Virus record (IMG/VR): IMGVR_UViG_3300008117_000010 | Location: 46,527-110,526 of that record | Direction: 5' to 3' (one strand) | DNA from: a virus | Length of the DNA stretch: 64,000 nt | Shown: piece by piece, positions 12,501 to 40,910 of the stretch | Layout: each line of letters starts with the position of its first letter | Position numbering within the stretch: position 1 is the stretch's first letter | Made by a program: the position numbers and the translations under genes | Notes under the pieces: generated by a model | Seen by the model: the letters and a program-made list of their open reading frames with translations, nothing else | Databases searched by the model: none | Told to the model about the DNA's origin: nothing

Positions 12501-12777
12501 GCGTGTTGAAAGAGTATTTAACTTAACAAATCAATATAACATTGATTATGGTAATTTAGGTGGTAGTTCTTCTATAAGAAGAGATTCAAATGGTAATGTT
12601 TTCTTATATCAAACATCTGCAGAATATGATCCACAAACAGGAAGAATAATAAATACTCCGTTAGCACCTGTTTATTTAAAAGATTTTGATATTAATCAAA
12701 CTGTGGAAACGTTAAATCAAACCCATAAAGAAATCTTACAAGACAATAGTATTAACATAAAAAGAGATAGAAGATAA
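9562..12777 (+). CDS. crAss-like cargo/ejection protein
   Basis: 1071 aa, helical. Small-residue hydrophobic segment AAKGAMTANLIPIVGPVAGVVSG. Stop overlaps the next start (TAATG). Confidence 0.6.
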   Translation: MATYIQGVTDYIPEIQPFQPDYNILAQALSTKEAQYQAGYDKISGIYGTLLNSNMTHSENIERRNKYFTQIENEIQKIAGLDLSRQDNVISAQQVFKPLINDKYIHKDMSFTKSFEDSLLASENYKRCVGENCGGQWWETGDLELAYKREEFANASLDQTLGMQNLNYTPFQNAYKMGMDFAKEMNFESQSVEITPDGRYQITRTNGQQMVPDLSQYMMATVGNDPKVADTYKTQAYVDRKNYIKANAQQYGSEEAAERQYFTEVFTAVEESNARRQAELEKQNQQIDNKKKLVEENKKTGINPAYDTDPEALLLGLDTQKEVVSINKKQADDIADLSNPSIVPNLPIDVLRSRVDAITASNSLQETLITAASNYANLTQKVEIKADEYGKMQVQHQYNMAEIAYKAQLDAEKEKKESETMADALGITDGVIVPGDVGQTDPNYNVQEEMIKREESLRGDGTAKTEHLSQVVVSQLQSVANDPNASPERRQEARRLLEDTYGVLETSTTYKEKTYLDEFVEEMKQDWESDDEFTWYNPLDLFDIAKQAADASWDYMFDDEKKESVKVEKEGYLRKDASGNLSLVKDWQNKAKTPFINDMKSANNVLELQGRIKNLITSEDFKQVIKGREDVILPDLYQAYNDIQGTEAELLAVQQAHLNNNKAVLSYIQSTPTDEYDPFIMEAREQFLDDKGNIRSLEEFAQAVMPVVANHPDREVWDWSSAAKGAMTANLIPIVGPVAGVVSGYRSGKVPMGELDQEDMMDEIESIYDEFKEDFSDAYANKDIPGITTEFSPLGGHTGAFSQGVSYQVDSMLGGMAPSNRAAGELLSAINQSGALANPKAAEATWIMGDGSMITPDVIDDQYSEDKENAIRAMMQQMSMDFLSSNPKNTTDGRPRFKITSYGTGAQNRNNVAITFTPSQAYLKGLIGSENLPGVYRSAFGKNMDQATFTLIIPREKLAQHTGSDGRPRETAIISRHTNTRVERVFNLTNQYNIDYGNLGGSSSIRRDSNGNVFLYQTSAEYDPQTGRIINTPLAPVYLKDFDINQTVETLNQTHKEILQDNSINIKRDRR

Positions 12778-21700: not shown

Positions 21701-22496
21701 TATTATTACAAGTAATATAACATTTTTAGATGCTAGAGCAAAAGATGTATCAATTGCTATTGTATATGATAATATTGAAGAGTATCCACAAAAGAAATTA
21801 GCCGTACTAGAACAAACTTTTAAGAAACAAAATCGTTTACGAGTTGCAGATTCAAAGAATATTGTCGATATTCTTGATAAGGACTTAGATACACTTCCAA
21901 GTCAAAGAAAGGAAACAGTTAAAATATCTGGTGAGAATTATGAATCATGGATAAAAACTGCTGAACTACCTTCTTTGTTTTTATTAATTAATGAAATAGA
22001 TTCAATGGAAGATCTTGATTTTCAATTTGAAAAAACAGATTTAGGTAATTTATCGGAAAAAAATTATCTTTATCTATTAGTTCGAAATGAAATCATTAGT
22101 AGAATGAAAAAGGGTATTGTAGATAAAAAGACATTAAAGAGTTTAGCACCTGCAGGTTCAGTAGTTATAATGGAAAATAGTCAGCTTTATCCTAGAGGAT
22201 TTGGGTATGTTACAAAATCAGGCAATGTTATGCCTTTATATCCTGAACAATCTTCAGGAGATACTGATTTTAAAACATATGGTAAAGCCCCATCTAGTTC
22301 TAATAAAGTAATTGCAATAATGCAATCTATGGAATTAGGTGAAGGAGAAACTACCACTGATGAAAATATACAAGCAAAAGAAAACTTAGAATCAATAAAA
22401 GGTAATCCTTTATCTACTGATGAGCTTAGTGAAATTGCTAATAACCCAGAGGATATAACAGATGCCCTAAATAATTTTAAAGATAATCTTTGTTAA
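12777..22496 (+). CDS. Giant polyvalent virion protein (membrane-like N-terminal segments, degenerate zincin, PD-(D/E)XK nuclease, ART-like and variable cassettes)
   Basis: 3239 aa. Gly/Ala hydrophobic segments and FAEGLQEVYQE; GQVDLV..LDIKT..QLNIY; YHHT..FGDGLNAS; internal repeats; directly upstream of the RNAP gene. Confidence 0.75.
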   Translation: MAEVNSTPNTFEVKSDSGNTINVIPKTPSTSSSKLYDEQATVGNSVSGPNPSPTGVSSTDRLNNAVLKIKDTTDPYAYAKPSAFNSTHTGLNFDRYSNHSQFRNLGFSPFRDNETIYNNNSSWFDDFGRAASQYGTLFSAGATSLFKNWGSLSNTTPDFDSANTMEKAMAIGSSSKSGFGASFTNFFLNSAYTVGVIAEIAAEEIALGLATGASGGGAAPAALTRTGLNIGRFTKAIGQLFKGANNISTARKVWNVAKKITPFGDTADLARGLIKGERATLRGIYKDYNSLDNFAKSKALFGQFYRDVREINAASSESKLEAGMVSNEVSAKLIDEFYRDNGRMPNFNESQVIHSQALQAGSEAYLYNMPAIYFSNKLVLEGALKGIKPFRSIMNKVPNNLRPVIKTVDGKKTAKVYDMNNIKSYLNLDSIRMLGKALRPKNLVGTGIRYTSANFAEGLQEVYQESLSAGLIDHYTNKNFGQERLGQAGLLNSLRLGAAELDKQNMALETFLSGFFMAAPIGGLQTIAFKKAPRLYQKYRNPEKYKQYIDDRKNAITKLENSLNAIINDPAKFANDFYANATEQNNLITRQLESEEAGDIAGAKNIKEQSFFEHVHTLLKHNMLDEFQTQMRDLLKLDDTSLKEAFGNGRESIEGDSFNAGLRDRINKAISRADRLKERYEESNEKFVNDYNPDTERDLYEAFEEGKKAYLFNEFMFERVGSRIQSMTGSLASNPKLSQVLGGDIAILFDTTAGGALQSKIKNLESEIKIYEQATTAEDKEILKQKQEEYEGLNTWYSAITAFERTYDESVKLENFDPSKAEKFVLQFPKGSPIEYTNTKGEKVEGKFVGVLGKNILIEIVNKKGKKQRVAVDRSKTAFMGEQDIDLSAQEIQFGDQTTLVDSMVYMLEALFGQVDSSFQIKGIEPLKGYLNTLAGPNGLNMTKDEMGEIFANVLDIVRLRKDSARHINALNILTDPDYFNSNVEKIGQLISTANRLAKIKVKAMLDDYERMMDNHHLLQELYEIGIFLDPNNVDALVNKNKIPSSFYAATNLPNIPELTQIDPSNPQHKDIYNKILEVLESYEALKGIEFVGKVDPTAISQTIPLGQQFQKQKGDERTILDLATEYGFNKDNPTDISAKELLQKIIDSQFGYLPDKQLARRLLSVIKDDINISFNRNHPVAVSYDTTNGIVINPNFSAANYRTGILNIEKVILNGLMQKLVNDNLTNAKFKADIENIKTKVQEAIVSGKLNAIIEQLEQQWNVVFPKNEKGDIIIDDVVGLKSIEQFVAMAMTDLSFQSILANTITEETNKSVWQEFLESLRNLLEQITGLYKGGNALEETLRITSTAILGEQITETQTTAEEINVATPLQQLPEDLTDALNVAWNELSPEDKQSYGSIDSWIQGSSAAATIINNYKKKKEKKEVGDDKKGLIQNTLTVAQLSYLRNKSGLEESDIFSMELPELIEIVNGKFRVLAPNENQNLTSAQLQEGRIIKTFNGITMTNVPIGTQNVVNPAVQQQLVQIGSKLEAIFSNVLGRGDASKVALLKNQAKAVGDNIINQIKQIYNINQLQYDENISSKIRTLLSDPSKYFFRVTSLNNIVEEIRKSTKDNIQAKLSEAIEKVLKEPDLSETSKNYTDRGTVIDEFFRMGLRGMLDQEINDTYVNRLLDLAYQNVQSKLNVQTPIIFSDKFKKDLTKTLKHVVDYMRINNYRALTDTNELFGSIGIIPVSGQVDLVLYNDKGDLLILDIKTMMPKNDRAKFKGYAESFEETLVEDRVGYVEKDTAQLNIYRELIQSLVGTELNKNNMRIQGMGILPLLVNMSIAGNGTRTISSIEISPSVSNVNNKNKPIGLYIPIIEKTTVELFPELYPQAPPATGIDATELARRKKLVGWTASYELATIAKREGIDLSKLSREEYANYAIKNGLKIDDSQLRTNPKHRNATSSQEVGEMLKADRASLSDVTKKAFNSFYNAIMAIVNKPQAERYLAQNVRLYSDTKNSNSWLYFGINNGTNTNESFTHKSYFSLKNLNDFSPELFRDFMIELQKRGYNGGVKIFQDLEVQGPALSDQVVMHGYSENDAKLALQVAKEFYGDKILESSYGKDEVINGKNMSYSQILSDKIKERVDSGNTQPLEGTTPPPAAPVVDVVTVYHHTNVKPEDFNFGTFQRGKEQVSQFGDGLNASSTTTPFLVQRYGQPIQGEIKDSDFIVIDANKTEKELYNELRAKGYNFNNPATGSYIGNDPAKEYDGTEKANEQPAIISLFNDFQKSNPEVKGVKVVNHIIGNQKVDPFYVIYDAKSFYGPGSLSKKAPVSDQAKKADIEIGKIANTEYEVKSDGVYYQGKKLNNPQNKTHRQLIETDIERRKQSELKFYTGNDLKQQITDLLNSEVPVPEITVKINNPLWNKQRAAQLEALDNNARIPKKIIRAAFINTQFIVNGEKYIIEKDSKYAYSNVRKESNNEIIGKITDGGYDYDGETINKDAFLKLLKNVDSPKISEFMENKINAKYKAELAALEGAKSTTPVSDIERRRQESINSIVETYNKGNDLIIGNAIITKADGTTESISDLKDVVTTGDPFQRLKDKINSRYKELAALEASVSNVEVKNTISNGDKIISVQTKPVTDEITDTAEDLFILPDNNPEGRIHINMEPLKDILVVPNNTLTIIDKKTGKEIINKELNPEGAVIFEAMQGRLFVVANINGQLVPFYKSSAGTSGKTQGAWYPFFGYTGAWLVKGGIDKATGKMSYSPEIDKVTDLLNENLVFPDKYIDRATNSIKNTKGEIIIDMNQAFKVNRLWQKEFGSQTGTGTNYEIKGLKENTRSESGLVALITGLNTTELDSSKTPKENSEWFNLISKNAELATSEGKKEEPIPSIINSKTLRDNKIIYISPVLTIPNEIKDDSAVLFYDDYAIAAINNLGFLKEAVTRDNYYQVINDVFYSGGYTSEQVLAFRNAINETAYNSIINALNESPEKVIITSNITFLDARAKDVSIAIVYDNIEEYPQKKLAVLEQTFKKQNRLRVADSKNIVDILDKDLDTLPSQRKETVKISGENYESWIKTAELPSLFLLINEIDSMEDLDFQFEKTDLGNLSEKNYLYLLVRNEIISRMKKGIVDKKTLKSLAPAGSVVIMENSQLYPRGFGYVTKSGNVMPLYPEQSSGDTDFKTYGKAPSSSNKVIAIMQSMELGEGETTTDENIQAKENLESIKGNPLSTDELSEIANNPEDITDALNNFKDNLC
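19711..21373 (+). repeat. Dispersed in-frame direct repeats bounding cassettes in the 3239-aa gene
   Basis: agaactagctgctttagaag at 20309 and 20549 (identical), variant at 21353; ctgatatagaaagaagaa at 19858 and 20353; ctcctgtttctgat at 19711 and 20344. Confidence 0.85.
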
Positions 22497-22506
22497 TTAA
22501 AAAACT

Positions 22507-25500
22507 ATGCAACTTTGTAATATTGATAAGAGTCAAAGAGAATTACTATATAGAGCTATTGCAGCTATAATTAACGACGCAATACAAAATAAACAACCAA
22601 TTGATACTAAAAAAATTGGTAATCAAATATATGATATAGTTTATAAAAAATCTCAGGATAATGCAAAAGCCTTGTCATATGTTTTATTAGTTCCAAAAGC
22701 AATAGATCAAATATTATCATTCAATGATAATTTCAAAGACTACGCCGTAGATAACAAGTTCGAATTTGATGAGTTAGCTAAATTAGTATCATCATTAAAT
22801 AAGTCTTCAGAAGAAACTATATTAAATGATATATCTACTTTCTTAGGAAAGATGTCTAATAAAAATTCATTTGAAGATGCACAAAAGGATTTACAAAATC
22901 TTCAAAGTGAACAAGCTAAAAATAAAAACTCTAAAATATTAGTACCATCATCTTATTTAGCTAAGCCCGAATCTCTTTATACAACAACTGGTCAACAAGG
23001 TTTGCGTGAAGATATCAATATACCAGATCCTTCAATGCAATTTTATTATGATATCATAAAAAAATTAAATACTAATTATATTAATGAAGAGGGCGGAGTA
23101 GTATATCCAAATGTTAAGAGCGGTTTATTTCTAAGTATAATTTCAGGAGTAAATATTGCTGATAATGAAATGTATACTAGAGATGCTGGAAATCGTAATG
23201 AGTATAATAAAAATTTCTTTCTAGCACTTACCGATAACCTTGGTAAAATAATGTATTTCGACACTAACTATAATGTAGTTGAAAGGAGTGCTGGTAAACC
23301 TATATACTTTCCGTTAAGAACTAATCTTGATTCTATTGTTGACAAATTAAATATTGGGCAATCACAACTAGAATCATTAAGAGAAGCCGCTAAATTTATT
23401 AATCAAGATAAGGTTAATAATAGAGTAGTAAATAAAATAACATTTAAGAGTGACGGATATCTTAGTACAAGTAATAGTCTACCTAAAGTAGATATAGCTA
23501 GTATTAAAAATAATAATATACTAACTTTTGTTACCGTACCAGGTAGCAATCAATTATATGTAAGCTCTAAAGGAGAATATCATTTTACAGTAGATGTTTC
23601 TTTTAAAGATTTTACAACAGTAAGAGCTAATCTCATTGCTGATTTAATTCTTAATCCAGTTTATAAAGATGGTAAACTGTTAAGTAATAATGATAAATAT
23701 AATATTCTAAGTAATTGGCTCTTTCAAAGAGAAATGAAATTTGGCCAAAAGAATAAAAAGTTTTATGTAACCCTTAATGGTCAATCACTTAATCTAGAGG
23801 ATAAAGAAGATTCAAAAGAAAAGATTGTTAACTTCTTAACTAGAAAGATTAAAACAGATAAAACAGAATATCAAAATAAATTTACATGGCAAAGCCGCTT
23901 ACTTGAAAATAATGAAACAATATCATTATTTAGTTTAAGTGTTGAAGACGGTAAATATATTTATACAGATAATCCAGTCTCTTATCAAGAATATTTAAAG
24001 CAAATAACATTTGCTAAAATTCAAACTGTTGATGGAGAAATATTTCCAATGAATGGATATATTGGTTATGAGCTTGGTAATAGAATTAGTAAGCCAAAAC
24101 CAGTTGAAACAAAAGTTGAAATAAAAAAACAAACTCCAGTTACATTAGATACGAATGAATATAATCGTGCAGTAAAAGAAGCAGATAGTAAAAAACCAAT
24201 TGAACAAAACTTCTTTGATGGTTATAGACCTAATTCAGATAAAACAAAAATCCATACCATACGACCTGAAATCACATCTATATATGGTAAAGGTGTAAAA
24301 ACACTTAAACTTGTTCAAGAAGGTATTAGAACAAGATCAACTCGCTTAGCTAATTGGATGAAAGAAAATAATCCCAAAGTAGGTGATTATTTTTGGCAAA
24401 TAAATAAAAAGAATCCAAGTGAAAAAGTACTAACTCGAATTACTGCAGTTTATGATAAAACTGATCCCCGCTTTAAAAACAATTGGTTTAAAGAAGGATG
24501 GGTTGATTCAGATTTTAAATATGTAGAAGACTATGCAGGTGCTATAGAATTTGAAGTTATTAAATCAGTTGTTGCAATAGGTGTTCAACCTCAAGTTACT
24601 ACTGAAGAAAAATTCGATTTAATACCAACTCGTCCGATTTCAGAAATAGAAAAGGAAATTGAATCATTTGAAAGTGAAATTAGATATGCAGCTGGCCAAT
24701 TAGAACAGCTTCAAACAAAAATGGAGCTTGTAGAAGATGAAGAAACTATTGAATCTTTTATTTTATCTCAATTTACTCCTGTTAATCCTGAGTCAGCTAG
24801 AAAAGAAACAGGAACAAACATTGGAACAAAACAAGATATTAATCCAGCATTATTAAATAAAAGAGGTCCAAGTGTTGAAAGACTTGCTGAAGAAATTGGT
24901 TCATTAGCAAGAGGAGTACCTTATCATTTTAGAGCAGAGGATGATTATATCCGTGATCAAATTATTGAAATTTTAGTAAAAGGTAAAGCTAAATATAAAG
25001 AAGAATTACAAGGTGGTAATCTTCAAGATATAAAATATTATGAAGAAAGAATTAATGATATATCAAAAAAACTTGATGAGTTAAATGTTGAATTAGAAAA
25101 TGCTAAACTAGCGCCACCAGTTTCTACTCCTCAAGAAACAGTTCAAATAGAATCAATTGAAGAATCAATTGTTAATGAATCTGAGACTAAAGAAGAAGAC
25201 ATTGATTTAGGTGAAATTGATCCTAATGATTTAAAGAATTTATTAGAAAAAAGAATTCTTCAAAAAGAAAGCGAAGTAAAAGCAACAAATGAAAAAATTA
25301 AAAAAGCACTACCGTGGTATAATAGTATAAAAACTAAGAGCGGTAAAAAACTCTCTAGTTTTTTACCAATTAAAGAAATGTTTGATGCAGTTAATACATC
25401 AAATCCAAATGCTGTTGCACACTGGTCAATGTCCGGTATAACATTATTTAATGGTAGTGATTACTCTGATTTATATCATGAAGCTTGGCACGCATTTACT

Positions 25501-28500
25501 CAGCAGTTTTTAACTACTGAAGAAAGAAATAATTTATATAATGCTGTTCGTGGTAAATCAGGAACATTTGAAGACTACAATGGAAATATTGTTGAGTTTT
25601 CATTAGCCTCAAAAAAACAAATAGAAGAATTTCTTGCAGAAGAATTTAGAGAGTTCATGTTGCGAGATGGTAAAGGTATGTATGAAAAGAAATCAATCTT
25701 TTCTAAAATCTTTAATAAAATTCGTGAGTTACTATTATGGTTATTTGATCGTACAACTTATTATGATGTCTACAATAATAGTAAAGCAACTAGAAATATT
25801 TCAAGACTTTTTAATGAACTTCGTATTGGAGAGTTAGCAGAACCTGTAAATGAAGTTGATCCAGACTTTGCTATTAAAGGTTTAGATAGAGTAATTAAAG
25901 TAAAAGATAGTAGCGATACATTTACAATAGAGGAGAGTAAAACTATAAGTGATACAATAGATAGTTTATTTAGTGAGTATAGTGATAAAGTAAATAACGC
26001 AACAAAAGTTAAATCAGCATCTATTCAATTACAAATAAGTCCAACATTCCAATTAAATGCATATAAGTATGCAAAGAATAGATTAATTCAAAGGAAAAAT
26101 GAATTAGTTCAAAAAGTAAAAACAAAACTAAGTGAAAAGAAAATTGATGATCTTAATACAGAAGAACTCAATTTATTTCGTAAAGACATTAAAAATATCA
26201 ACTTATTAAAAAAAGCGATTAAAGCTTTTATAATTCCTGAGAATCTTAACAATGTAAAAAGTGCAAAAGAAATTGATGGAATTATTAGTAGTCACCAACA
26301 ATTATCTGAATACTTAAAAGATATTGTTCAATTAGAAGAAGAATATAACATTCTTAATAATAATGTTATTGCAGATAGAGCAGGTAATGCAAACTCATTT
26401 GAACAACTTACAGATCCCAAACTCTTATATACATTTGGTGGTGTATTTGAAAGAGATGAGAAAGGAGAAATTATAAAAAATTCTTTAGGTTTTAATAAAA
26501 CAATGGCTCCTAAGCGTGTATTTAACAAGCTTAGTAACATACTGGAGACAAATGATAATGAAAAAAGACCGAATAATATAACGGCGCTTTATAAAAAAAT
26601 GGAATCTTTACAAAAAACAGATCCATTTATTAAGGACATACTAAATAAATTAGGTAGTCCATATACTACTAATACAAATGTTAATAGCTTATGGTCAGCT
26701 TTAGAAGTTTTAATCTTACCTGTAGCACATGTAATGCGTGCTGAAATTGTAAAGGGAGATAACAATTCTATATCTGCTGTATTTGTAACAAATGCTTCGC
26801 TTGAAACAGAATCAGCAATCCGTTCATTTGCAAACTATACTGCTGTACTTGACTCCTCAGATCCAAATAACTTTTTATTTGAGAATGCTGATGGTGTTAA
26901 TATAATAGACCTGAGATCTATTTTTGTACCAACAGAGGGTAGACCAAAAAATTATGGTAACAGTAAAGCTGCTCAAGAAAACCCTTTAGAATTTTTAAGA
27001 GCCATTGGTATATATTTACCAAATGATCCTAATGTCATAAAAGAGTTAATGACAGAGGAAGCACAGGAATATATAAATCGTTTATATAATGCCGCTTTAG
27101 AAATTAAAAATTATAATTATAGTAAAGGCACTAAAGAAAGTGACAAAATAGAAGTCTTTAGTATTAAAGAAATACTAAAAGATTATTCAAAAGATCCAAA
27201 ATATAAAAATGTTAAGAAGCTTCCTAAAGGACAAAGCGTTGCCAAAAAATTCTTTACAAAACTTTACTTAAAGTATTCTGATCAATCAAATAACTTAAGT
27301 ATTACAACAGTTGATGATAAAACTGTATTCCAAAGATCTTTGCCTAATACATTAATGATGAAAGCACAAATTATAAATAGTGCTGATTCATTTAATAATT
27401 TAGTAAGTATTCCTGAAACTGAAGATTTAGCAAAAGAAATAAACGGTAAAACAAAAAACCCTTGGTCAAAGGCATCTCAATTATTAAACAAAGTTTTGTT
27501 TGATGAAAAGGGTAATAAAAGAGAAGGTGCTAGAATAGATATTGCTTCTTTAGATGGATTAAAAATAAGATTAGATGAAGTAGATTTAGCTGCCATTAAA
27601 TCATCAGACTCAGATCCATACTCAAAACAATTATTAGATATTATTTTCACATTAGAATATGGTGTATCTGAAGCAACACGACACGCGGGTAAAAGTTCAA
27701 CATTCCTTTTTGAGATAACAAGAAGTGATGGCTCTAAACATTATATTAATCTTGAAAAGTTTACAAGAAATATTAGTAAAGGTGAAAATATATTTAATAG
27801 TGGTATTGTAGATGCCGTAAATATTTTTGTAAATTATTTAGCTTCAGAATATGAGCGCATTCAACTTGCAACCAATGATCCAGAAAATAAAAATATAAGA
27901 ACTGGTAATGGTAAATCCATGGCCGAAGTAGGATCAGAATTTTTATTGTTTAAAGATATTATACCTAAATCAATACTAGACAATATTAAGTCTATTGAAG
28001 GTGTTGAAACATATGAAGATTTTTTACAGCATTTAGATAATAATGTTTCTTTAAGAGACTCTATAAAGAAAAACATATATAATTACTTAAACAACGTAGT
28101 TAAACAAGAATTAAATGATTTCAATAAACTAAATGTTAAAAAAGAATTCAATGATATTCTTCATAAGAAAATGAAATCAGCAAGTCAAAGAGCATTAAAG
28201 GGTGGTAAAATAACTAAAGAAACAGAACTCAATTATAATCAATTACGCAATAGTGCTATTACTGCTTATACAATAAATTCATTAATACATAACATTGAGA
28301 CTGGATTACTTTTTTATGGTGATCCAGCAATATTTAATAATAATAAACAGGATTATCAGAAACGAAATTCGGGTGCAGGATCAACAGGTATTGTAACCCG
28401 TACAGATGATGCCTATTTACAATTCATTAATAGCAAAGGTGGTCTAGGAAAAGTAAAGAATGAACAAAGAAATTTTGATGGTACCTTAAATACGGTAGTA

Positions 28501-31500
28501 TTAAATGATCCTAAGACTACTGCAAAACTATATAATGAATATATAAAAGCAGCTAAAAATAAAGAAAGTGAAAGATTAAAAAAGCTTAAAAAATCACAGA
28601 AAGAAATAGATATAGCACTTAAAAAAATAGAAGAAAAGTTTTCTGAGGCATATGAAAATATGAAAGAAGCAGATGCCCAAGGATATATTTCTTTTTCTGC
28701 ATATAGAGCTTTGTCTTGGGGTATGAATAAATGGACCCTAGCTCAAGAGCTTGGATATCAAAAAATAATGAATGGTGAAAAAATAGATAATGCTGATATT
28801 CTTTATCCTGTTCGTAAATACCAATATTGGGGATCTTTACAAACAAAAGGATTACCAGCAACAGCCTTTCATAAATTCTCATTATTACCACTAATTCCAA
28901 CATTAACGGAGAATGCACCACACCTGAATGCACTTCGAATGAAAATGGAAAATGAAGGTATTGACTACTTAACATTTGAAACAGGATCTAAAGCAGGTAC
29001 AATCGCAATAGATAATAAACTTGATAATCTTTATAAGGGAGATTCAAGCGATCGTATTTTAGATTTACCAGTAGAGTTTACAAAGAATGTAGTATTTGCA
29101 AAATTTTTAAAGGAACAGTTATCTATTGCTCCTCAATTTAAAGAGACTGTTACCTTCTCTACGCAGTTAAGAAAACTTGTGATTGAAGGTTTATGGGAAG
29201 AAGGGGAACCTGTTGGTAAAAATGAAGAAGAAAAAAATAATGTAAAACAAAAAACTGCAGCATATATTAATGCAGTTAATAACTTAACTGAACTTCTATT
29301 TATAGAATTAAAAGATAAAGCAGGTATAAATCCAGAGACAAATAAGGTTGAAAATAAAGTAAAACTTATTGATTATCTAACTAATGCTCTTGAAAATAAG
29401 GATACACCTTATCATATAATTGAACAAATAGCAAGTCTTAAGACTCGATTACAAACCGGAATATCATTTGACTATTTAATTCAAGCAAGTGATATTGAAA
29501 AACTTATAACAGGTCTTGTATATAAGAAAGTTATTAATCAAAAAGTATATGGTGAAGGACTTATTCAAGTTTCAACTGCAGGATGGGCAGTTAAAAAAGA
29601 TGACAACCTAAAATTCTATCGAACAGAAAATGGTGTTGTTAAACCAATGCAAGTTAAAATTGCAATGCAAGGTGAGTTTCTTAATCTTCTACAACATCCT
29701 GATGTATTAGATATAGTTAGTGCAGAAGAAAATATAACTGAATTACAAGCCTTAAATCGTTTATTAAAAGATGAAGCATGGGTAAATAAAAACCGTGAGA
29801 TGATTACTTTAATGGGTCCTCGTATTCCAGTACAAGGATTGAACTCCATGGAAGTAATGGAAATTGCTGAATTCTTACCACGCAATTATGGAAACGTTAT
29901 TGTTGTGCCATCAGAAATTGTTGGTAAAGCAGGTTCAGACTTTGACGTTGATAAACTTAGTATTGTATTCCCAGGAATTAAAGTATATAATGGAGTACCA
30001 CAAGTAGTTAATTTTAATAAAAATTTATTTAAGCAAACAACTAGAAGTCAATTAATAAAAGAAAAAGTAAGATTAGAAAAACTTGTTGATGTTACATATG
30101 AAACTCGTCGTGGTCTTTATGAAATGATAAAAGACGATGCAATCTTTACAGATGAACAAAGAGTAGCACTTGAAAGATTATACGCAGAACATAAAGAACA
30201 AATGGCTGAAGTTAATATACGTATTAAAGAACTTGAAGCACAATGGGAAGAAACAGGAGGAGCTGAAGTATTATTAAAGGGAACTATTCCTGATGACTAT
30301 TCATTACAAAATACTCTTTTAAATACCTATGCTGAAAGAGCTAGAATACGAAAGCAATTCCAAAATAATAGATATCTATATAAGTCAACGTTTATTGACG
30401 AAGATTTTAAGAATGATTTAGAAGCAATTGAAAATAAGATAGATGATGTTACTAAGCAGATTGATTCTATATCTATAGCTGCAGCAGAATATGATGTATT
30501 AAAATCTACAATTGATATACTATTATTACCACAAAACTTTGTAAGCTTAATTACTCCAAATACAACCATAGACGCAAAAGGATTATCAAAAGAAATGCGT
30601 AAAAGAGTAGACTTTGGATATTCTACAGAAGATAACTTTCTTAAAGAGAACAAAGGGTTTTCACCTACTCGTATATATGAACCAAAATATAATAGAGAAA
30701 AATTAGATTACAATAAAGTAGGTAAAGATTCACTTGGTATTGGTGCAGTAGATAATACCTTTAATGTATTATTAAATTATGTTGGAGCATATTTAAACAA
30801 TGATGTCGCTATAACAAAGGATTATTCCCGTAGAATTGTAATTCGTGGTTTAAAGCATAATAAATATAAGGATACAGAAAACATATCATTAAGTAAAATA
30901 TACGATGCTAACAATGAATTTAAAATATCTGATATTATAAGCCAGTTTATTAATGGTTGGGTGGATGTTGAAAAGGATGAGTGGATATTCTTTATTCAAG
31001 GTAATAAAGAATTAAGTAGTACACTTCTTTTTATGATACAGGCAGGTATCCCATTAAACGATGCTGTGGTATTTCTAAATCAACCAATTATACGAGATTA
31101 TTATAATCGTGTAAGATTAGCACTTTCACCAGCTTCTGAAATTTTAGAAGAAGGTAAAAAAGATAAGTATGTTCGAAATAAAGTATTTGATGACTTAATG
31201 TATAATAATGATATATACAGAAATATTTATGATGGTGAAAAGGAAAAAACAAAAAAATCATTTTCAAAAGCAGGAAGATTTTATGCAATATCAACTATAG
31301 CAGAAAAATATAAGTTTAATAAAGAGTCTTTAGAGAGCAAGCTATCTAATCCAATTGGTACTTATAGTCAAGACGACTATGCTATTTTAGGACACTTTTT
31401 TGAATTAAGAGAAAATGCCAATTCATTAACAAATATTAAAATGGCATTAAACTTTGATACAAAAAGAGAAACAAGTATTGACGAAGTAAAAGAAAAACTA

Positions 31501-34500
31501 AATAAAAGAGGTCAAATATACGGATCAATTTTACCTAAAGAGATTATTAATAAGTTATTAAATGAATCTCCAATATCTAGCTTTAATATCCAAAAAGATA
31601 TTGTAGCAATGATGGAAGCATTATTTCCAGTAAGAATGAGTGACGTAGTTGAGGATGCAATAAATGATACAGATGAAACTGTATGGAAAAACATTGGTGA
31701 AAATTTAAACTTTGATGATAGAACAAAAATTGTTGATGCAAAAAATGCATTCAGAAATGCTTTAATTCCCTATTTGTTTCAAGAATCATATTATAGTCTA
31801 AATGAAGAAGAGTATAGAGGATATAAAATAAAATATACTTCAGACTATGCAGATAGAGTTGTTGTTATTTCTCCTACTGAACCAGATGTAATATTAATTA
31901 ATCAGACTGCAGTAGATAACTTAATTACTAGTACAAATAATAATTCTAAGAAATTATATATGCCAGAGTTTATGCTTACTGCTTACGGTGTAGCATCACT
32001 TCCGGTAAATACATTTAAAAACATTAATGAAAATATTGGTTTAAGAAAATATTTAATTGAAAGAGAAATTCAAAGAACGTTAGATGAAAACAGTTTTGAA
32101 AAAATTTCAAAGTCATTATTATATAAGACATATAAAAATAAGCTTAAAATAGAAGATGTAAATAATCCATATCTGTCAGTAAATAATCAATTAACTTCTT
32201 TAACTAGTCAATTAAATATTTCTAAAGAAGAAGCCTATAATTTATTAGCATATGAATTAGTGTTAAGAGATAAAAGTCTTAATAATCTTAATTTCCCAGG
32301 CTGGCTTTTCTATGATACTAAGAATGAACAAACTTCATATGGTTCTCAATTAAATTATATTAAAAGAAAATATAACTTTTTAGAAAGAGAATTTTCTGTA
32401 TTAGATGCACTTGAAGTTAGAAGAAATAAAAATACTAATGAAGTTAATATAAAACTGAAAGACACACGTATTACTGGTAGTGAAAAGAATATATTCCAAA
32501 GCCAGATTAATATGTTAAGTGATCCTCAAAAACTGCTAGAAATAAAATCAAGTCTAAGTGAAGCAGATATAAATGAAATAACATCTTTCTTTAAAAGGTT
32601 TCATGTATTTGCTTATTTGCAAAGTGCTGCAAATTCAACTAGTAGCACATATAATTTATTACCAATTGCTAACCCAATGGTAATTGAAAATTTAATTGCA
32701 CAACCAATTCAAGACTTTGCTAGTTTTGAATATGATCAGTTTTCGGAAAATAATGAGGAAGTAACAAATTACATTATTGAGCGGGATAATAAAATAGAAA
32801 CAGTTGAAACTGCAATTAAAAATTATAATAATATATTATCGGCTCAATTTAAAACTAATCATGTCACATTAATAAAACAACGGTTTGAATGGAATGCTGA
32901 TACATTATCACTACAAGAACAACAAGCTGCTGAAGAAGATAATCTAAAGTTATTAAAAGCTCAAAATCCTTTAGGATTAGTTGAAGTACCAACTAAAGCT
33001 GAAAAAAATATTATTAAAAATAAAGGTAAAAAAACAGTATTTTCTTTAATTACTAATTCGCTTGGTCAAGCTTATTTATATGAATCAGAAGCTAAAGGTT
33101 TAGATGCTGTAGTAATAGAAAATCTAGATACCTTAAAAGATGATTATTTATTTATTGGTAATACTGGAACTGAAACTTTTACTGATGGAACTATTTCTAA
33201 AGTAGATGATGGAAAGTTATTACAGAGTCAAGCATTTCTTGGTGTTCCCTCTAGAAAAATCAAAGGAGATTTAACTGATGAAACTCTTGAGGAAAATAAA
33301 AAATTAATAGATGATGCTATTCAAAATATACTTAATCGTAGGTCTAATAAGCTTTTAGTATTTAATAAAAACGGATACGGTCAAAACTTAATTGGAAGAA
33401 ATCCAAATAATGCATCAGAACTTAAAGGTAAAGTTACAGCACCAAAAACTTTCCAATACTTATCTCAGAAATTAGCACAACATTTTGGTTTTGTAAATCC
33501 AAATTCAACTTTACAATCAACAGTTGATGAGTCCAAAGTAAAAACTATATCAACAGATTATGGGGTAGTTCAAGCTGAAACTAATCCTACTAAAGAATTT
33601 GATCAAAAATTAGCAGATGCTATTTATCAAGATGTTAAAGATAATTCTTATGTTGAAAATGGTAGTAACACTGCACAAAGAATGTGGGCTAATGGATTGA
33701 TGTGGAAAGGTAATAACACTAAAAAACCAACAGGTCAAGTTTTAAAGGTTCAACCAGCACAAGTAGATTATAATGCTAATGGTAAACTTACTCCTGTAAA
33801 AACCCCGTATTTTTATGATTCTGAGTACAATGATGGAACACCGGTAGCACCAATAACTAACTTAGATTTCTTAAAAAAACACATTGAAAATACTTTGGGT
33901 ATTGATATGTCAGACTATGATGTAAGCTTAAATAACATATATGAAGAAGGTCATGATTTATTTAGACATACTGACATTGATGAATCAAACACAGCTAAAA
34001 ATTATCCTGTAATTGTATACGTTTTTGGCAATAATCATAAAGTAAGATTTGATGATAACGGTGGTAAAAGAGCGATGGGTAAAATGGTAAATCCAAAAAC
34101 TCTTACATTAAAAAATGGAGATATATATGCTTTTGGTGTAAATGGTAAAGGTAGATTTGAAACTGTTCATGATGTAGTGGCTTCACCAAAAACAAATGAT
34201 AATTTTCCTGAATTAATAGGAAGTGATGGTAAACCAACTAAAAAATATACTGTTACTTTTACATTTAGAAGAGCTGCTGATTTAGAACCGGGTATGCCTA
34301 AAACACCCGCTAATTTTAATACTACAAATACTAATACAACAGTAACTGTAAATAAACCTAGTGAATATACTAATCATTCAGGTGGTGCTAAAGGTGCAGA
34401 TACTGCATGGGATGTAGAAGCTAAAAAATTAGGATACCTTACAAATGATGTTCATTGGCGTGAACCTGGTAAAACTGAAATTGATAGTCTAGAATTAAAA

Positions 34501-35052
34501 AAACTTGGACGAACAGCTACTCCAATGTCTCCTGAACTATATGCTAGAGGTAAACAAATAGCAGATATAATTGATGAATCATTTGGTGAAGATCCAAATA
34601 GAGCAGGTTCTCATTATAGATATCGTAATTATGCTCAAGTTGCAAATTCAGATGCCATATTTGCAATATCACAAGGTTTTGGTGTAAGACCTAAGGATCC
34701 TAAAAAACGATATGCACCATTAGATAGAGGTACTTTATATGCAATTTACGGTGCTATTTATGATGGTAAACCAGTATATGTATATGATCAGATGGCAAGT
34801 GTTTGGCGTACATTTAATAGAGAAACAAAAAAATGGCAAGAAACAGGTATTCCAAAACTTACTCAAAATTTTGCTGGTGTCGGTTCAAGAAATTTAGAAG
34901 AAAATGGTAGACAAGCAATAATAGATGTACTAAAAAATACATTTGGTCAAAACGCTCCATCCTCAATAACTCCATCAAAAATTTCAGTACCTTTAACATC
35001 ATTAGAAATATACAATGCAATAATTAACGATATTAAATCCTGTGGAATATAA
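22507..35052 (+). CDS. Virion-packaged two-barrel DNA-dependent RNA polymerase (crAss-like) with accessory domains
   Basis: 4181 aa. GPRIPVQG (29821) and catalytic GSDFDVDK (DFDVD at 29938-29952); EADAQGY; zincin HEAWH..EEFLAE; ASCH-like, AlkB-like and SLOG domains. Confidence 0.92.
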   Translation: MQLCNIDKSQRELLYRAIAAIINDAIQNKQPIDTKKIGNQIYDIVYKKSQDNAKALSYVLLVPKAIDQILSFNDNFKDYAVDNKFEFDELAKLVSSLNKSSEETILNDISTFLGKMSNKNSFEDAQKDLQNLQSEQAKNKNSKILVPSSYLAKPESLYTTTGQQGLREDINIPDPSMQFYYDIIKKLNTNYINEEGGVVYPNVKSGLFLSIISGVNIADNEMYTRDAGNRNEYNKNFFLALTDNLGKIMYFDTNYNVVERSAGKPIYFPLRTNLDSIVDKLNIGQSQLESLREAAKFINQDKVNNRVVNKITFKSDGYLSTSNSLPKVDIASIKNNNILTFVTVPGSNQLYVSSKGEYHFTVDVSFKDFTTVRANLIADLILNPVYKDGKLLSNNDKYNILSNWLFQREMKFGQKNKKFYVTLNGQSLNLEDKEDSKEKIVNFLTRKIKTDKTEYQNKFTWQSRLLENNETISLFSLSVEDGKYIYTDNPVSYQEYLKQITFAKIQTVDGEIFPMNGYIGYELGNRISKPKPVETKVEIKKQTPVTLDTNEYNRAVKEADSKKPIEQNFFDGYRPNSDKTKIHTIRPEITSIYGKGVKTLKLVQEGIRTRSTRLANWMKENNPKVGDYFWQINKKNPSEKVLTRITAVYDKTDPRFKNNWFKEGWVDSDFKYVEDYAGAIEFEVIKSVVAIGVQPQVTTEEKFDLIPTRPISEIEKEIESFESEIRYAAGQLEQLQTKMELVEDEETIESFILSQFTPVNPESARKETGTNIGTKQDINPALLNKRGPSVERLAEEIGSLARGVPYHFRAEDDYIRDQIIEILVKGKAKYKEELQGGNLQDIKYYEERINDISKKLDELNVELENAKLAPPVSTPQETVQIESIEESIVNESETKEEDIDLGEIDPNDLKNLLEKRILQKESEVKATNEKIKKALPWYNSIKTKSGKKLSSFLPIKEMFDAVNTSNPNAVAHWSMSGITLFNGSDYSDLYHEAWHAFTQQFLTTEERNNLYNAVRGKSGTFEDYNGNIVEFSLASKKQIEEFLAEEFREFMLRDGKGMYEKKSIFSKIFNKIRELLLWLFDRTTYYDVYNNSKATRNISRLFNELRIGELAEPVNEVDPDFAIKGLDRVIKVKDSSDTFTIEESKTISDTIDSLFSEYSDKVNNATKVKSASIQLQISPTFQLNAYKYAKNRLIQRKNELVQKVKTKLSEKKIDDLNTEELNLFRKDIKNINLLKKAIKAFIIPENLNNVKSAKEIDGIISSHQQLSEYLKDIVQLEEEYNILNNNVIADRAGNANSFEQLTDPKLLYTFGGVFERDEKGEIIKNSLGFNKTMAPKRVFNKLSNILETNDNEKRPNNITALYKKMESLQKTDPFIKDILNKLGSPYTTNTNVNSLWSALEVLILPVAHVMRAEIVKGDNNSISAVFVTNASLETESAIRSFANYTAVLDSSDPNNFLFENADGVNIIDLRSIFVPTEGRPKNYGNSKAAQENPLEFLRAIGIYLPNDPNVIKELMTEEAQEYINRLYNAALEIKNYNYSKGTKESDKIEVFSIKEILKDYSKDPKYKNVKKLPKGQSVAKKFFTKLYLKYSDQSNNLSITTVDDKTVFQRSLPNTLMMKAQIINSADSFNNLVSIPETEDLAKEINGKTKNPWSKASQLLNKVLFDEKGNKREGARIDIASLDGLKIRLDEVDLAAIKSSDSDPYSKQLLDIIFTLEYGVSEATRHAGKSSTFLFEITRSDGSKHYINLEKFTRNISKGENIFNSGIVDAVNIFVNYLASEYERIQLATNDPENKNIRTGNGKSMAEVGSEFLLFKDIIPKSILDNIKSIEGVETYEDFLQHLDNNVSLRDSIKKNIYNYLNNVVKQELNDFNKLNVKKEFNDILHKKMKSASQRALKGGKITKETELNYNQLRNSAITAYTINSLIHNIETGLLFYGDPAIFNNNKQDYQKRNSGAGSTGIVTRTDDAYLQFINSKGGLGKVKNEQRNFDGTLNTVVLNDPKTTAKLYNEYIKAAKNKESERLKKLKKSQKEIDIALKKIEEKFSEAYENMKEADAQGYISFSAYRALSWGMNKWTLAQELGYQKIMNGEKIDNADILYPVRKYQYWGSLQTKGLPATAFHKFSLLPLIPTLTENAPHLNALRMKMENEGIDYLTFETGSKAGTIAIDNKLDNLYKGDSSDRILDLPVEFTKNVVFAKFLKEQLSIAPQFKETVTFSTQLRKLVIEGLWEEGEPVGKNEEEKNNVKQKTAAYINAVNNLTELLFIELKDKAGINPETNKVENKVKLIDYLTNALENKDTPYHIIEQIASLKTRLQTGISFDYLIQASDIEKLITGLVYKKVINQKVYGEGLIQVSTAGWAVKKDDNLKFYRTENGVVKPMQVKIAMQGEFLNLLQHPDVLDIVSAEENITELQALNRLLKDEAWVNKNREMITLMGPRIPVQGLNSMEVMEIAEFLPRNYGNVIVVPSEIVGKAGSDFDVDKLSIVFPGIKVYNGVPQVVNFNKNLFKQTTRSQLIKEKVRLEKLVDVTYETRRGLYEMIKDDAIFTDEQRVALERLYAEHKEQMAEVNIRIKELEAQWEETGGAEVLLKGTIPDDYSLQNTLLNTYAERARIRKQFQNNRYLYKSTFIDEDFKNDLEAIENKIDDVTKQIDSISIAAAEYDVLKSTIDILLLPQNFVSLITPNTTIDAKGLSKEMRKRVDFGYSTEDNFLKENKGFSPTRIYEPKYNREKLDYNKVGKDSLGIGAVDNTFNVLLNYVGAYLNNDVAITKDYSRRIVIRGLKHNKYKDTENISLSKIYDANNEFKISDIISQFINGWVDVEKDEWIFFIQGNKELSSTLLFMIQAGIPLNDAVVFLNQPIIRDYYNRVRLALSPASEILEEGKKDKYVRNKVFDDLMYNNDIYRNIYDGEKEKTKKSFSKAGRFYAISTIAEKYKFNKESLESKLSNPIGTYSQDDYAILGHFFELRENANSLTNIKMALNFDTKRETSIDEVKEKLNKRGQIYGSILPKEIINKLLNESPISSFNIQKDIVAMMEALFPVRMSDVVEDAINDTDETVWKNIGENLNFDDRTKIVDAKNAFRNALIPYLFQESYYSLNEEEYRGYKIKYTSDYADRVVVISPTEPDVILINQTAVDNLITSTNNNSKKLYMPEFMLTAYGVASLPVNTFKNINENIGLRKYLIEREIQRTLDENSFEKISKSLLYKTYKNKLKIEDVNNPYLSVNNQLTSLTSQLNISKEEAYNLLAYELVLRDKSLNNLNFPGWLFYDTKNEQTSYGSQLNYIKRKYNFLEREFSVLDALEVRRNKNTNEVNIKLKDTRITGSEKNIFQSQINMLSDPQKLLEIKSSLSEADINEITSFFKRFHVFAYLQSAANSTSSTYNLLPIANPMVIENLIAQPIQDFASFEYDQFSENNEEVTNYIIERDNKIETVETAIKNYNNILSAQFKTNHVTLIKQRFEWNADTLSLQEQQAAEEDNLKLLKAQNPLGLVEVPTKAEKNIIKNKGKKTVFSLITNSLGQAYLYESEAKGLDAVVIENLDTLKDDYLFIGNTGTETFTDGTISKVDDGKLLQSQAFLGVPSRKIKGDLTDETLEENKKLIDDAIQNILNRRSNKLLVFNKNGYGQNLIGRNPNNASELKGKVTAPKTFQYLSQKLAQHFGFVNPNSTLQSTVDESKVKTISTDYGVVQAETNPTKEFDQKLADAIYQDVKDNSYVENGSNTAQRMWANGLMWKGNNTKKPTGQVLKVQPAQVDYNANGKLTPVKTPYFYDSEYNDGTPVAPITNLDFLKKHIENTLGIDMSDYDVSLNNIYEEGHDLFRHTDIDESNTAKNYPVIVYVFGNNHKVRFDDNGGKRAMGKMVNPKTLTLKNGDIYAFGVNGKGRFETVHDVVASPKTNDNFPELIGSDGKPTKKYTVTFTFRRAADLEPGMPKTPANFNTTNTNTTVTVNKPSEYTNHSGGAKGADTAWDVEAKKLGYLTNDVHWREPGKTEIDSLELKKLGRTATPMSPELYARGKQIADIIDESFGEDPNRAGSHYRYRNYAQVANSDAIFAISQGFGVRPKDPKKRYAPLDRGTLYAIYGAIYDGKPVYVYDQMASVWRTFNRETKKWQETGIPKLTQNFAGVGSRNLEENGRQAIIDVLKNTFGQNAPSSITPSKISVPLTSLEIYNAIINDIKSCGI

Positions 35053-38000
35053 TGGCAACATGTGTAATAAATACTCCTGAATTTGAAGCAATAGAAAAAG
35101 TAACTAATAGTGCTACCGCATGGAAAGAATTTGCTAGATCAAAAATTACTGGAGAAGCAATGCGCTCTCCAGAAACAGTGCTAGAAGAATCATGGTATAG
35201 AGGACAATTTCTAAATAAAAAACCAGGTGAACCATGGATAGATAGAATGGATGGTTTTCAACAACAAATGAATTCATGGCCTGAGTATAATCTTTTAGCT
35301 AATCCAATTAAATATGATTTTAAAGGTCATAATGATGCAGTTAGTCTTTCTGCTATAAGACAATTAGCAGATAGGCTAAAAGAAAAAACTGGAATTAATT
35401 ATGAAATTATTTCACAAGAACAAGCAATTGAGTTAACAAAGCATTTAGATATTAAACAACAATATGTTACTGGTAAGCCAGCATTTTATTTAGGAGGTGT
35501 AGCTTATTTAGTTAGTGATTTTGTTTCTGCAACTAATGTGCTACACGAATTTGCACACCCTATTATTAAAGCAATTGCTGTAGATAATCCAAAACTATTC
35601 AATAATCTTTATACACAGATACAAAATCAATATCCTGATATAATAGAATACCTTAAGAGTGAATATGATTATCTAGATATTAATTCAAGTGAATTTAAAG
35701 AAGAAGCAATTGTTACTGCACTTGATTTATTTCATAGCATAAAACAAGAAAATCCTAAAGCAAAAGGTCCATTTATAGATTTATTAAATGATATACTTTA
35801 TGCTATAAGAAAATTTTTAAGAAAGATTACTAATAATAAAGTAAAGGTTGAAAATATAAATGAGTTCTCAACTTTAGAAGACCTAGCTAATCTAATGACT
35901 GATGATACTACATTTGAGTTAGATGATCAAATAATTACTAATAGTGACTTTGCAGCATATGCTTCGACATATAATGATTATTTAAATGAATTGAGAAAAG
36001 CTGCTAGTCCTGCGGATATACAGGGGGCATTACTTAATACATATGATATTGTAATTGAGCAATTAAAAGCATTAGAAAATAATCCTAATTATCGTTTTGC
36101 AGCTGAAATATTAAAAGATAAATATGGTGAATTAGAAGTTCAAAATATTGTTAAAAATATTAATCGTGTTAAAGATGATGCAAAAGCTTTAAAAGATCAG
36201 GCTAAAATGGATAGAGCTCGTGCTAGTGAGTTTCTTAAATCTATTTTACTATTAGAAGAAATGATTAAAAAAACTAATGCTAGTTTAAGAACACTCGAAA
36301 AAGAAGCAAAAGAAAACGAAAATAATAATAGAGATAACCGAGATGTTCTTCAGAATGTTTATTATCTCAATAATCTTTTAAACGGTTGGAATGAATTAAT
36401 AAACGAATATATAAATACACTTGAAGAGAATAATGTAGATATAGAAAATGATTTCTATAAAATGCTTAGTGCAATAAAAAGAAAAATAGAAAACACACAA
36501 TCAATTGCAAATAACATATACACATATAAAATTACCGATGTTTTAAGTGCTGAAATTCAACCATTGATGGAAGCTATTGACATGCGTTATGAAGCTCTAT
36601 TAAAATTTTATAAAGATCGTAATGCGCCACAATGGAAAATAGCAGATGTAGAAAAAGAATATGCAGAAATAAAACTTAATCCTGGAAAAATCCAGGAAAT
36701 GCTAAAAGGAGATTTAGGAGATGCACATTTCTTGAATTCATTTTTAGAAGGTTATATGAATAACCAAGATCCGGTTGTATTTGCATTTGCTTCTTATGTT
36801 AAAAATGGATTGAATGATCTTAATTCTAATTCATTAGAAAAAATGAATAAGTTTCTAGTTGAGCTAGAACCATTATTACAAGCAGCTGGATTTAATCGTA
36901 ACAGATTATCTGATTTAGGTGAGCGTTTAACTCAAATAGATTCAACACCATATAGAGAAAGAAAAGAATTAAAATTTAAAAAGGTATATAAGTTCATTAA
37001 TCCTTGGAAAGGTCAAGATGAAGCAATTGCAAAAATGAACGAGGCAATTAATAATGCTCGTAACGTAGCAAGAGAGTCAGGTGATTACACAGAAGTTCAA
37101 AGATTAATGCAAGAGAAAGAAGACTTTCAGCGTAAGTATTTTTATACAGAGTACACTCAAAAATATTACGATAGATATAACATCTTAAATAAAGACGAGT
37201 TAGGTAGAGAAGCAAAAGATTTATTAACTACAATTGATTTTAAAATAAAAGAATTACAAAACTCTATTCTTTCACCAACTCAAGATATTGTTGGACTAGA
37301 TGAACTTGATGCATTACAGCGTGAGAGAAAATATCTTTTTTCTCTTACTGATGAGAATGGTAAACTAAAGTCAGGTAGAGATCTTGAAATTGCAAAGCGT
37401 TTACAAGAGTATAATGCTTCTGCAAAAGATATGTTTACTAAAATAACTTTTCCAGGATTATTTGAACAAGCATATCGTGAAGCAGAAAACTATTTTATCG
37501 ATCAAGGATATGAAAGAGGTACGCCTGCCTATGAGCAGTTAATGAACGAATGGTTAAAAAAGAATTCTAAAATAGAATTAAGTTCTGATTTCTATGTAAT
37601 GCGTGCTAATTTATACGCTGAGATTCAAGAACTTGAAGAACAATATAGAGACCTCGTATCTCAACTTGGATACGATCAAGGAATAGCGAGAACAGAAGAA
37701 GAAATGCTAGATCTATATAAAGAATTAAATGATATTCTATATAGACATAGAGATGAAAGTGGTCAACCACAGGGATCACTAATGAATAAAGAAACACTTG
37801 AAAGAGTTTTCTTTTTAGAAAGTGAAATTGAACGTATAAAAACTGAAGCTCCAAGTTTTAATAATCTTACACGAGATGAAAATTCTTGGTTAAGAGATTA
37901 CTTTGATCGTATTAAAGCTGGTGAAGAAATATCAGATGAAGATAAAGCTAGAGCAAGAGAGTTAAATAAAAAGAAAGTATCATTAAAAGGTAAAAAGTAT

Positions 38001-40730: not shown

Positions 40731-40762
40731 TTATTTTGTATATTATTTTATATACAAAATAA
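40731..40762. promoter_or_regulatory. Perfect 12-bp AT-rich inverted repeat between the last giant gene and a small ORF
   Basis: ttattttgtata-N8-tatacaaaataa; function unknown. Confidence 0.5.
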
Positions 40763-40766
40763 AATA

Positions 40767-40907
40767 ATGGCAAAAACAAAAAAGCAATCTGAAAAGGTAT
40801 TTATTCCAAAGCCAAAAGTTAAGAACCCTAACGTCCACTCCAAAAAAAAGACTTCAAAATTGAAGTCTAGTAAGAACTATGTAAAAGCTTACAGAGGACA
40901 AGGTTAA
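40767..40907 (+). CDS. 46-aa highly basic protein ending YRGQG (absent from the ORF track)
   Basis: MAKTKKQSEKVFIPKPKVKNPNVHSKKKTSKLKSSKNYVKAYRGQG*. Fills the gap exactly, has an A-rich leader, and the YRGQG ending is one I recall from small phage proteins. Confidence 0.8.
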   Translation: MAKTKKQSEKVFIPKPKVKNPNVHSKKKTSKLKSSKNYVKAYRGQG

Positions 40908-40910
40908 TAA

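Follow-up and report, generated by a model that had tools for sequence, protein, structure and literature searches.

The closest described counterparts of the proteins considered here are the giant cargo proteins of two crAss-like phages, gp67-gp66-gp65 of phi14:2 (bioRxiv 10.1101/2020.03.07.982082, Drobysheva et al.) and gp47-gp50-gp49 of PhiCrAss001 (PMC10172136, Bayfield et al.), all identified in virions by mass spectrometry. This cargo is thought to be ejected partly unfolded, and fusion of all three into a single polyprotein has been reported for some phages (bioRxiv 10.1101/2020.03.07.982082; PMC10172136). A second precedent is provided by the cyanopodophage A4 (Anabaena phage A-4L; PNAS 2025), in which cryo-electron microscopy revealed a disulfide between gp27 Cys1715 and gp26 Cys5, beside a C-terminal helix of gp27 inserted in gp26; the bond was neither presented as a general rule nor related to gene fusion or fission (PMC12002296). 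Here we describe the distribution of cysteines (Cys) in three giant proteins, A, B and C, encoded by consecutive plus-strand open reading frames (ORFs) in a 64,000-nucleotide stretch of DNA, hereafter the window, corresponding to bases 46527-110526 of the 110.5-kb viral record IMGVR_UViG_3300008117_000010, which bears direct terminal repeats. Homology to the above cargo, and location at the end of the structural operon, argue that A, B and C are packaged in the virion and ejected. Their Cys are confined to the ends at which one protein faces the next, and head-to-tail disulfide links probably join the three.

A, B and C contain exactly four Cys in 9312 residues, located at the C-terminus of A, at both ends of B and at the N-terminus of C (Table 1). 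No Cys is found at the free ends of the series, which are the N-terminal end of A and the C-terminal end of C. The original prediction, which had been made by reading the translations, had reported these four residues and the bare free ends. Rechecking the ORFs proved the count and all the positions correct, and no internal Cys had been missed. The total mass, computed at 1057 kDa, agrees with the approximately 1 MDa first proposed. About 107 Cys would be expected in the three proteins from position-specific base composition. Cys account for 1.34% of the residues encoded by the minus-strand (replication) genes of the window, and at this rate the probability of finding four or fewer in 9312 residues is 4e-48. 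If four Cys are placed at random, the probability that each of the four junction-facing ends receives one within four residues is 8e-13. Low Cys content is a feature of the whole cargo block (G000 45.8-87.3 kb), where values range from 0 to 0.28%.

Table 1. Location of the cargo genes A, B and C in the window, of their cysteines, and of the domains and motifs discussed in the text
Feature	Position in the window	Strand	Remarks
Protein A	12777..22496	+	3239 aa, 361.5 kDa; proposed first link; counterpart of phi14:2 gp67 / crAss001 gp47-like protein
Protein B	22507..35052	+	4181 aa, 476.5 kDa; crAss-type virion RNA polymerase homologue; proposed middle link
Protein C	35052..40730	+	1892 aa, 219.1 kDa; proposed last link; counterpart of phi14:2 gp65 / crAss001 gp49-like protein
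Cys3239 of A (last residue, ..DNLC*)	22491-22493	+	sole Cys of A
Cys4 of B (MQLC)	22516..22518	+	on free tail preceding helix 8-27
Cys4179 of B (third from last, ..KSCGI*)	35041..35043	+	second of only two Cys in B
Cys4 of C (MATC)	35061..35063	+	sole Cys of C
C-terminal tail of A (residues 3190-3239)	22344..22493	+	ends in Cys3239; predicted docking onto B N-terminal helical bundle (co-fold)
N-terminal all-helical bundle of B (residues 8-137)	22528..22917	+	AlphaFold 2 (AF2) model; predicted docking site for A tail
HEAWH (B residues 991-995)	25477..25491	+	zincin-like HExxH motif; H991, E992, A993, H995 invariant (alignment A1)
DFDVD (B residues 2478-2482)	29938..29952	+	catalytic metal-binding motif of crAss-type two-barrel RNA polymerases; from sequence

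The same arrangement has been found in about 240 homologues at 20-50% identity, in 80 IMG/VR loci and in named phages, and the terminal Cys are conserved in orthologous trios across Crassvirales, a comparison that the original prediction had proposed as a check. The loci were retrieved by a profile scan with A1, an alignment of 20 sequences in which C4 and C4179 of B are among about 80 invariant columns, and ORFs were taken from the first ATG after a stop. In 53 of 57 C homologues, some with as little as 23% identity, the only Cys is found at residues 3-8. Most B homologues carry one Cys within residues 3-6 and another within the last 1-6, and usually none elsewhere; A homologues with exactly one Cys, located inside the last 10 residues, are 93 out of 114. 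When N-termini at 13-31% identity to the window are compared, Cys4 is the sole invariant column both among 38 proteins of the B type and among 34 of the C type. The residues following it differ by class, being C-[ATS]-L-[STN]..Q in B-type and C-P-N-K-like in C-type proteins, a difference suggestive of recognition of a cognate partner by each end. Single-sequence scans of viral contigs with the C-terminal end of A and the N-terminal end of C yielded no match.

Named phages conform to the pattern regardless of gene layout (negative numbers count from the C-terminal end). In phi14:2, the only Cys of gp67 is the last residue, those of gp66 are residues 3 and 2179, and that of gp65 is residue 3. 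In Kehishuvirus tikkala, a crAss001-like phage whose polymerase is 99% identical to that of crAss001, Cys are found at -2 in the gp47-like protein, at 5, 1334 and -9 in the gp50-like protein, and at 5 in the gp49-like protein. The gene encoding the gp47-like protein, the counterpart of A, resides on the opposite strand, and the pattern still holds; it thus belongs to the proteins, and does not stem from a signal at the boundaries between genes. Two of the three proteins are fused in other phages. Both p-crAssphage LMMB and crAss002 (L005, NC_055828) encode A, with Cys at -2, and a BC fusion, which in LMMB starts with MSC and lacks a C-terminal Cys. The phage cr50_1 (Suoliviridae) and Flavobacterium phage FpV4 encode an AB fusion with Cys at -2, and C with Cys at 3. 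Gene annotation may be revised on these grounds. In crAss002 gp33 (L005, 17088-29825) an internal M-S-C is found at residues 33-35, where Met is followed by S-C-T-P-S-N-P-K, in agreement with the conserved N-terminal Cys motif, and the annotated start probably lies 32 codons upstream of the true one.

The distribution of Cys is coupled to the breaks between polypeptides. Junctions, defined as the boundaries between consecutive ORFs of at least 500 aa, were scored in the 80 loci. In the non-redundant set of 159, Cys are present on both sides of 119, on neither side of 40, and on one side only of none, figures that refer to related homologues and do not count independent events. The 40 junctions without Cys are almost all upstream of A. 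Inner Cys are rare, 29 having been found in 517,620 residues. The approximately 240 proteins were classed by domain content, and then scored for N- and C-terminal Cys. Proteins with architecture A have a Cys at the C-terminal end only in 73 of 75 cases, and proteins with architecture C at the N-terminal end only in 54 of 57. Among proteins with architecture B, 46 have Cys at both ends, 13 at the C-terminal end only, and one at neither end. Of the A-B fusions, 34 out of 36 have a C-terminal and no N-terminal Cys, and in many of them that Cys is the only one. An apparent A-B-C fusion, P0107, which includes an A-part, an RNA polymerase core and a C core, is 3767 aa long and has zero Cys. Loci related to P0107, or to the homologue P0008, were not found among viral and genome contigs, and a 70-aa piece of P0107 retrieved nothing from the phage collection.

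Both A-B and B-C fusions lack the Cys pair at the fused junction. Phages with an A-B fusion retain exactly one pair, and in two such loci, L088 and L090, the gene next to the fusion still starts with M-x-x-C. The reverse is observed upon fission. In L065 a 583-aa ORF, with Cys at 4 and -3, is found between B and C. This ORF corresponds to the first ~560 aa of C proteins that are not split, and these lack Cys at the internal site in question. Its identity to residues 1-563 of one of them, the 2352-aa C protein of L011, is 40%, and the other part of the L011 protein is matched by what remains of C in L065. Similarly, L082 hosts an extra link of 506 aa with Cys at both ends. Each polypeptide break has a Cys pair, and each continuous stretch has none. 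Self-cleavage of a polyprotein at Cys was also considered, and is ruled out because the fused forms have no junction Cys. The A-B fusion gene of L090 (~23100-23740) shifts frame about 200 codons before its end, and the tail ..HIKKCYLK* is read in another frame; the change may be a genuine frameshift, or else reflect an error in the assembly.

These data leave virtually no room for chance, for a nucleotide signal at gene junctions, or for miscalled gene ends as the origin of the pattern. It is true that the sequence TGTAATA follows both start codons in the window. Yet, Cys is kept as an amino acid in unrelated nucleotide contexts and at varying distances from the ends, from residue 3 to residue 7 at the N-terminus and with 0 to 9 residues following it at the C-terminus, and the pattern survives separation of the A and B genes. 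The three variants are refuted by the opposite-strand A gene, by these variable contexts, by the absence of discordant junctions among the 159, and by the value of 8e-13 calculated in the window alone.

That each terminal Cys may play a role of its own at the chain end, as a packaging or processing mark, as a site of thiol modification, or as a zincin cysteine-switch, and form no link, is a quite improbable explanation. Any feature of chain ends would likewise vanish in fusions, and the HEFAH motif of C, at residue 165, is 160 residues from Cys4. Separate reasons would however be needed for four ends carrying Cys and for two bare ends, strict pairing across genes, even on opposite strands, is not predicted, and the extra links with Cys at both ends stay unexplained. 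Coliphage N4, which delivers a giant virion RNA polymerase (vRNAP) through a short tail with accessory ejection proteins (PMC13434306), is a useful term of comparison. In N4 (L087, NC_008720, 10524-23524) the vRNAP gp50 and the gp51 and gp52 proteins (3500, 644 and 150 aa) contain zero Cys, so that the ejection of giant cargo needs no such mark. N4 shares with the window the giant vRNAP cargo and the avoidance of internal Cys, but has no terminal Cys, and hence no thiol link, and its polymerase is of the unrelated T7-like type. Since the N4 cargo is Cys-free, absence of Cys is the baseline, and terminal Cys are an addition.

Structure prediction supports the binding of the tail of A to the N-terminal domain of B. 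In the AF2 model, B 8-137 forms a confident helical bundle, with a block predicted local distance difference test (pLDDT) value of ~88-97 over most of it, and Cys4 is on a free tail. No match with E <= 0.001 was found when the model of the domain was compared with the PDB by Foldseek, and the domain thus has no structural tie to A4 gp26. Residues 1-420 of B and 3120-3239 of A were co-folded, along with three controls, using a self-made shallow alignment. The A/B pair scored 0.81, the best of the three controls 0.01; the mark used is reached by 58 of 80 solved complexes, and by 2 of 110 mismatched pairs. The runs share at least 37% of contacts, and the pLDDT of the partner is at least 50. Co-folding of each C-terminal tail with the next N-terminus had been proposed as a check in the original prediction, and at the A/B junction the outcome lends support to binding without demonstrating it. 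The predicted interface involves A 3190-3239, including residues 3237-3239, and B 2-24, 44-76 and 97-110. The closest predicted pairs (B13/A3234, B17/A3230, B20/A3227) are those of antiparallel helices, and indicate that Cys4 of B would be near Cys3239 of A, a position extrapolated from the list of contacts and not a measured distance.

The predicted geometry, with a tail or helix lying on the N-terminal domain of the next protein, is similar to that solved in A4, and the sequence signature is the same. A check of the A-4L sequences showed that the sole Cys of gp27 is residue 1715 of 1717 (-3), and the sole Cys of gp26 is residue 5. The two systems differ in other respects. In A4 one link connects two proteins of a T7-like ejectosome, seen in a pentameric ring, without the participation of an RNA polymerase. 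In the window, two or more links would be arranged serially, with a 4181-aa vRNAP in the middle.

The A4 structure bears on the possibility that the paired terminal thiolates, together with other ligands, bind a metal, forming a reversible clasp with no disulfide. The Cys pattern, the co-occurrence of Cys across junctions and the fusion data fit any pairwise link equally, and zinc chemistry is present, since HExxH motifs are found in B and C. A clasp of this sort is nonetheless unlikely. There is one Cys per side, with no conserved His, Asp or Cys adjoining, Cys4 being the sole invariant column; His is rare in A, B and C (0.65-0.74%), and the sole solved case with the same signature, A4, is a disulfide. 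The idea of one Zn(Cys)4 knot tying the four ends together was rejected as unlikely, because phages with an A-B fusion keep just one pair.

The thiols may alternatively form disulfides with other partners, either homotypic (A-A, C-C, concatemers of B or a cyclised B), or to the portal, the capsid interior and the like. In favour of this, a single near-terminal Cys is found in other cargo or tail-proximal proteins of some relatives, namely in the 861-aa protein of p-crAssphage (L004 5576-8161; Cys at -2), in crAss002 gp30 (L005 6393-8066; Cys at -8, within a R-C-G-G motif) and in FpV4 gp30 (L091 2054-3850; Cys at residue 5). Further links beyond the three giants may exist in some lineages; the small cargo proteins of the window have no near-terminal single Cys. 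Bonding to other partners would however leave the bare N-terminus of A and the bare C-terminus of C unexplained. Junction Cys are always gained or lost together, with 0 discordant cases in 159, and the N-terminal motifs of B-type and C-type proteins are distinct, as expected for cognate docking. Given also that the co-fold is in favour of the A tail contacting the B N-terminal domain, and that the bond in A4 is heterotypic, we consider this alternative improbable.

We therefore favour head-to-tail disulfide links that join the cargo proteins in the order A-B-C, a reading to which we assign a probability of about 0.7. According to it, A, B and C would be kept Cys-free, except that each partner-facing end would bear one thiol, placed on a short free tail. 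The C-terminal tail of one protein would dock non-covalently on the N-terminal domain of the next, as predicted for A onto B, and the adjoining thiols would oxidise to a disulfide once the particle leaves the reducing cytoplasm. The outcome would be a linear thread, A-S-S-B-S-S-C, of ~1.06 MDa, able to move partly unfolded through the tail channel like one polypeptide, as the fused A-B and B-C forms must do. Links located within a few residues of the chain ends would make the thread almost unbranched, and passage through the tail would thus be possible. That the bond is a disulfide is suggested by analogy with A4. The thread would be ejected in a fixed order, and thiol reductants of the host would plausibly release the three proteins in the cytoplasm.

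Several points weigh against linkage of this kind. No bond between A, B and C has been observed in any crAss-like virion, and neither the PhiCrAss001 atlas (PMC10172136) nor the phi14:2 preprint (bioRxiv 10.1101/2020.03.07.982082) mentions terminal Cys or a link. A few homologues break the rule (P0008, P0051, P0052, P0190, P0212, P0081 and P0095), the giant proteins of Intestiviridae and Suoliviridae have a few inner Cys, and the shared ancestry of the homologues lessens the weight of the junction counts. The co-fold concerns the A/B junction only, is based on a shallow alignment, has low partner pLDDT values (51-59), and gives no S-S coordinates. A4 gp26 and gp27 gave no blastp hit below E 0.06 among crAss proteins, and there is no detectable homology between the two sets, which resemble each other in mechanism. 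Since virions are put together in a reducing cytoplasm, and many of the hosts come from anoxic environments, oxidation inside the capsid is an assumption. Disulfides of polyomavirus and papillomavirus capsids form in particles assembled in a reducing compartment, and are undone on entry; they stabilise the shell. In favour of the links, PhiCrAss001 virions do carry disulfides between molecules, located in the tail and within gp57 (PMC10172136), which also form in particles assembled in a reducing compartment, and stabilise the structure rather than join cargo end to end.

The original prediction had envisaged a linear A-B-C chain in gene order, and knew of no description of anything similar. 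The linear chain is strongly supported by the conservation of the Cys, by their perfect pairing at junctions, by their loss in fusions and gain upon fission, and by the co-fold, and the A4 disulfide has an identical signature. Gene order fits the pattern but is not essential, as the A gene of crAss001-like phages is on the other strand. The claim of novelty has to be narrowed. Full-text literature searches retrieved no description of junction Cys links for Crassvirales, and a two-protein precedent exists in A4 (PMC12002296).

No phages are more abundant in the human gut than Crassvirales, and how a protein mass of ~1 MDa, including the polymerase that starts the infection, is stored and injected is a question raised by the crAss001 structure paper itself. 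A simple sequence rule predicts which ends are joined. The rule offers a reason for the near-total absence of Cys in the giant cargo proteins, and accounts for the mixture of split and fused gene layouts. In annotation, the Cys pattern may be exploited to flag the true starts and ends, the recoded stops and the frameshifts of giant cargo genes. A broader and more speculative view, which we hold as a tentative extension, somewhat doubtful in its full breadth, is that a junction cysteine code operates across Crassvirales and allied phages of Bacteroidota. Peptide bonds and disulfides would be interchangeable, and any break would be mended, after translation, by a terminal Cys pair. The vRNAP and its effector domains would always travel through the tail in fixed order as one thread of ~1 MDa, and cutting of the links by thiol reductants of the host would time the release and activation of the polymerase. 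If true, the code would explain why these genes are freely fused, split and swapped in modules.

The three proteins of the window are distant relatives of the described cargo. They are homologous to the phi14:2 and crAss001-like proteins, share with them the terminal-only Cys pattern, and are longer (3239, 4181 and 1892 aa against 1797, 2180 and 1421 aa), with 21-24% identity over the aligned regions of B and C. By sequence, B is a homologue of crAss-type virion RNA polymerases. It matches phi14:2 gp66 and the crAss001-like polymerases at 22-25% identity over B residues ~1770-2520 (tblastn, blastp), and D2478, D2480 and D2482 are invariant in alignment A1, in keeping with the DFDxD catalytic motif described for crAss-type polymerases (bioRxiv 10.1101/2020.03.07.982082). 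C matches phi14:2 gp65 and the crAss001 gp49-like protein with E ~1e-7. For A, the match to phi14:2 gp67 spans 74 aligned aa (43% identity, E 1e-12), and its N-terminal domain is tied to the corresponding domains of phi14:2-type and tikkala-type A proteins solely via shared homologues. The homology of A to gp67 is weaker, at the sequence level, than that of B and C to their counterparts. Searches of A, B and C against PHROGs and Pfam returned little, and the window had no megablast match in the phage collection.

The smaller cargo proteins encoded upstream of A (window 9562-12777, 3910-6720 and 2-3496) are likewise Cys-poor, and their few Cys form close pairs, 128/133, 309/312, and 494/499 with 1105/1120. 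Viewed over the whole genome, close pairs in the smaller members of the cargo block are 128/133, 309/312, 736/741 and 1347/1362. The pair 128/133-134 of the protein directly before A recurs in the distant loci L011, L019, L038, L047, L071 and L077, which hints at a small metal site or an intramolecular disulfide that has been conserved. Genes for the tail and fibres, directly before the cargo block (G000 31513-45805), are the opposite of the block, being Cys-rich (3-6%), and agree in this with the disulfide-stabilised tail of PhiCrAss001.

Additional domains are associated with the polymerase polypeptide. Residues 3720-3891 of B resemble an AlkB-like 2-oxoglutarate-Fe(II) oxygenase (Pfam PF13532, E 1.8e-5, below the curated cut-off), and among B homologues the add-on Pfam domains PF05970, PF13604, PF06414, PF13671, PF08719, PF00075 and PF18760 were identified. 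Taken with the HEAWH motif, the AlkB-like region and the variety of added domains make the giant polymerase polypeptide look like a carrier of effector domains. Modules of A (residues ~1850-2150, 2116-2330 and 2600-2870) share 70-90% identity with segments of giant proteins whose remaining parts are only ~25% identical or unalignable, which points to recent domain exchange among the cargo genes of different phages. A-like modules are at times found inside B-type proteins (P0148, P0167-P0170). In A itself, residues 1632-1765 are weakly similar to a PD-(D/E)XK nuclease.

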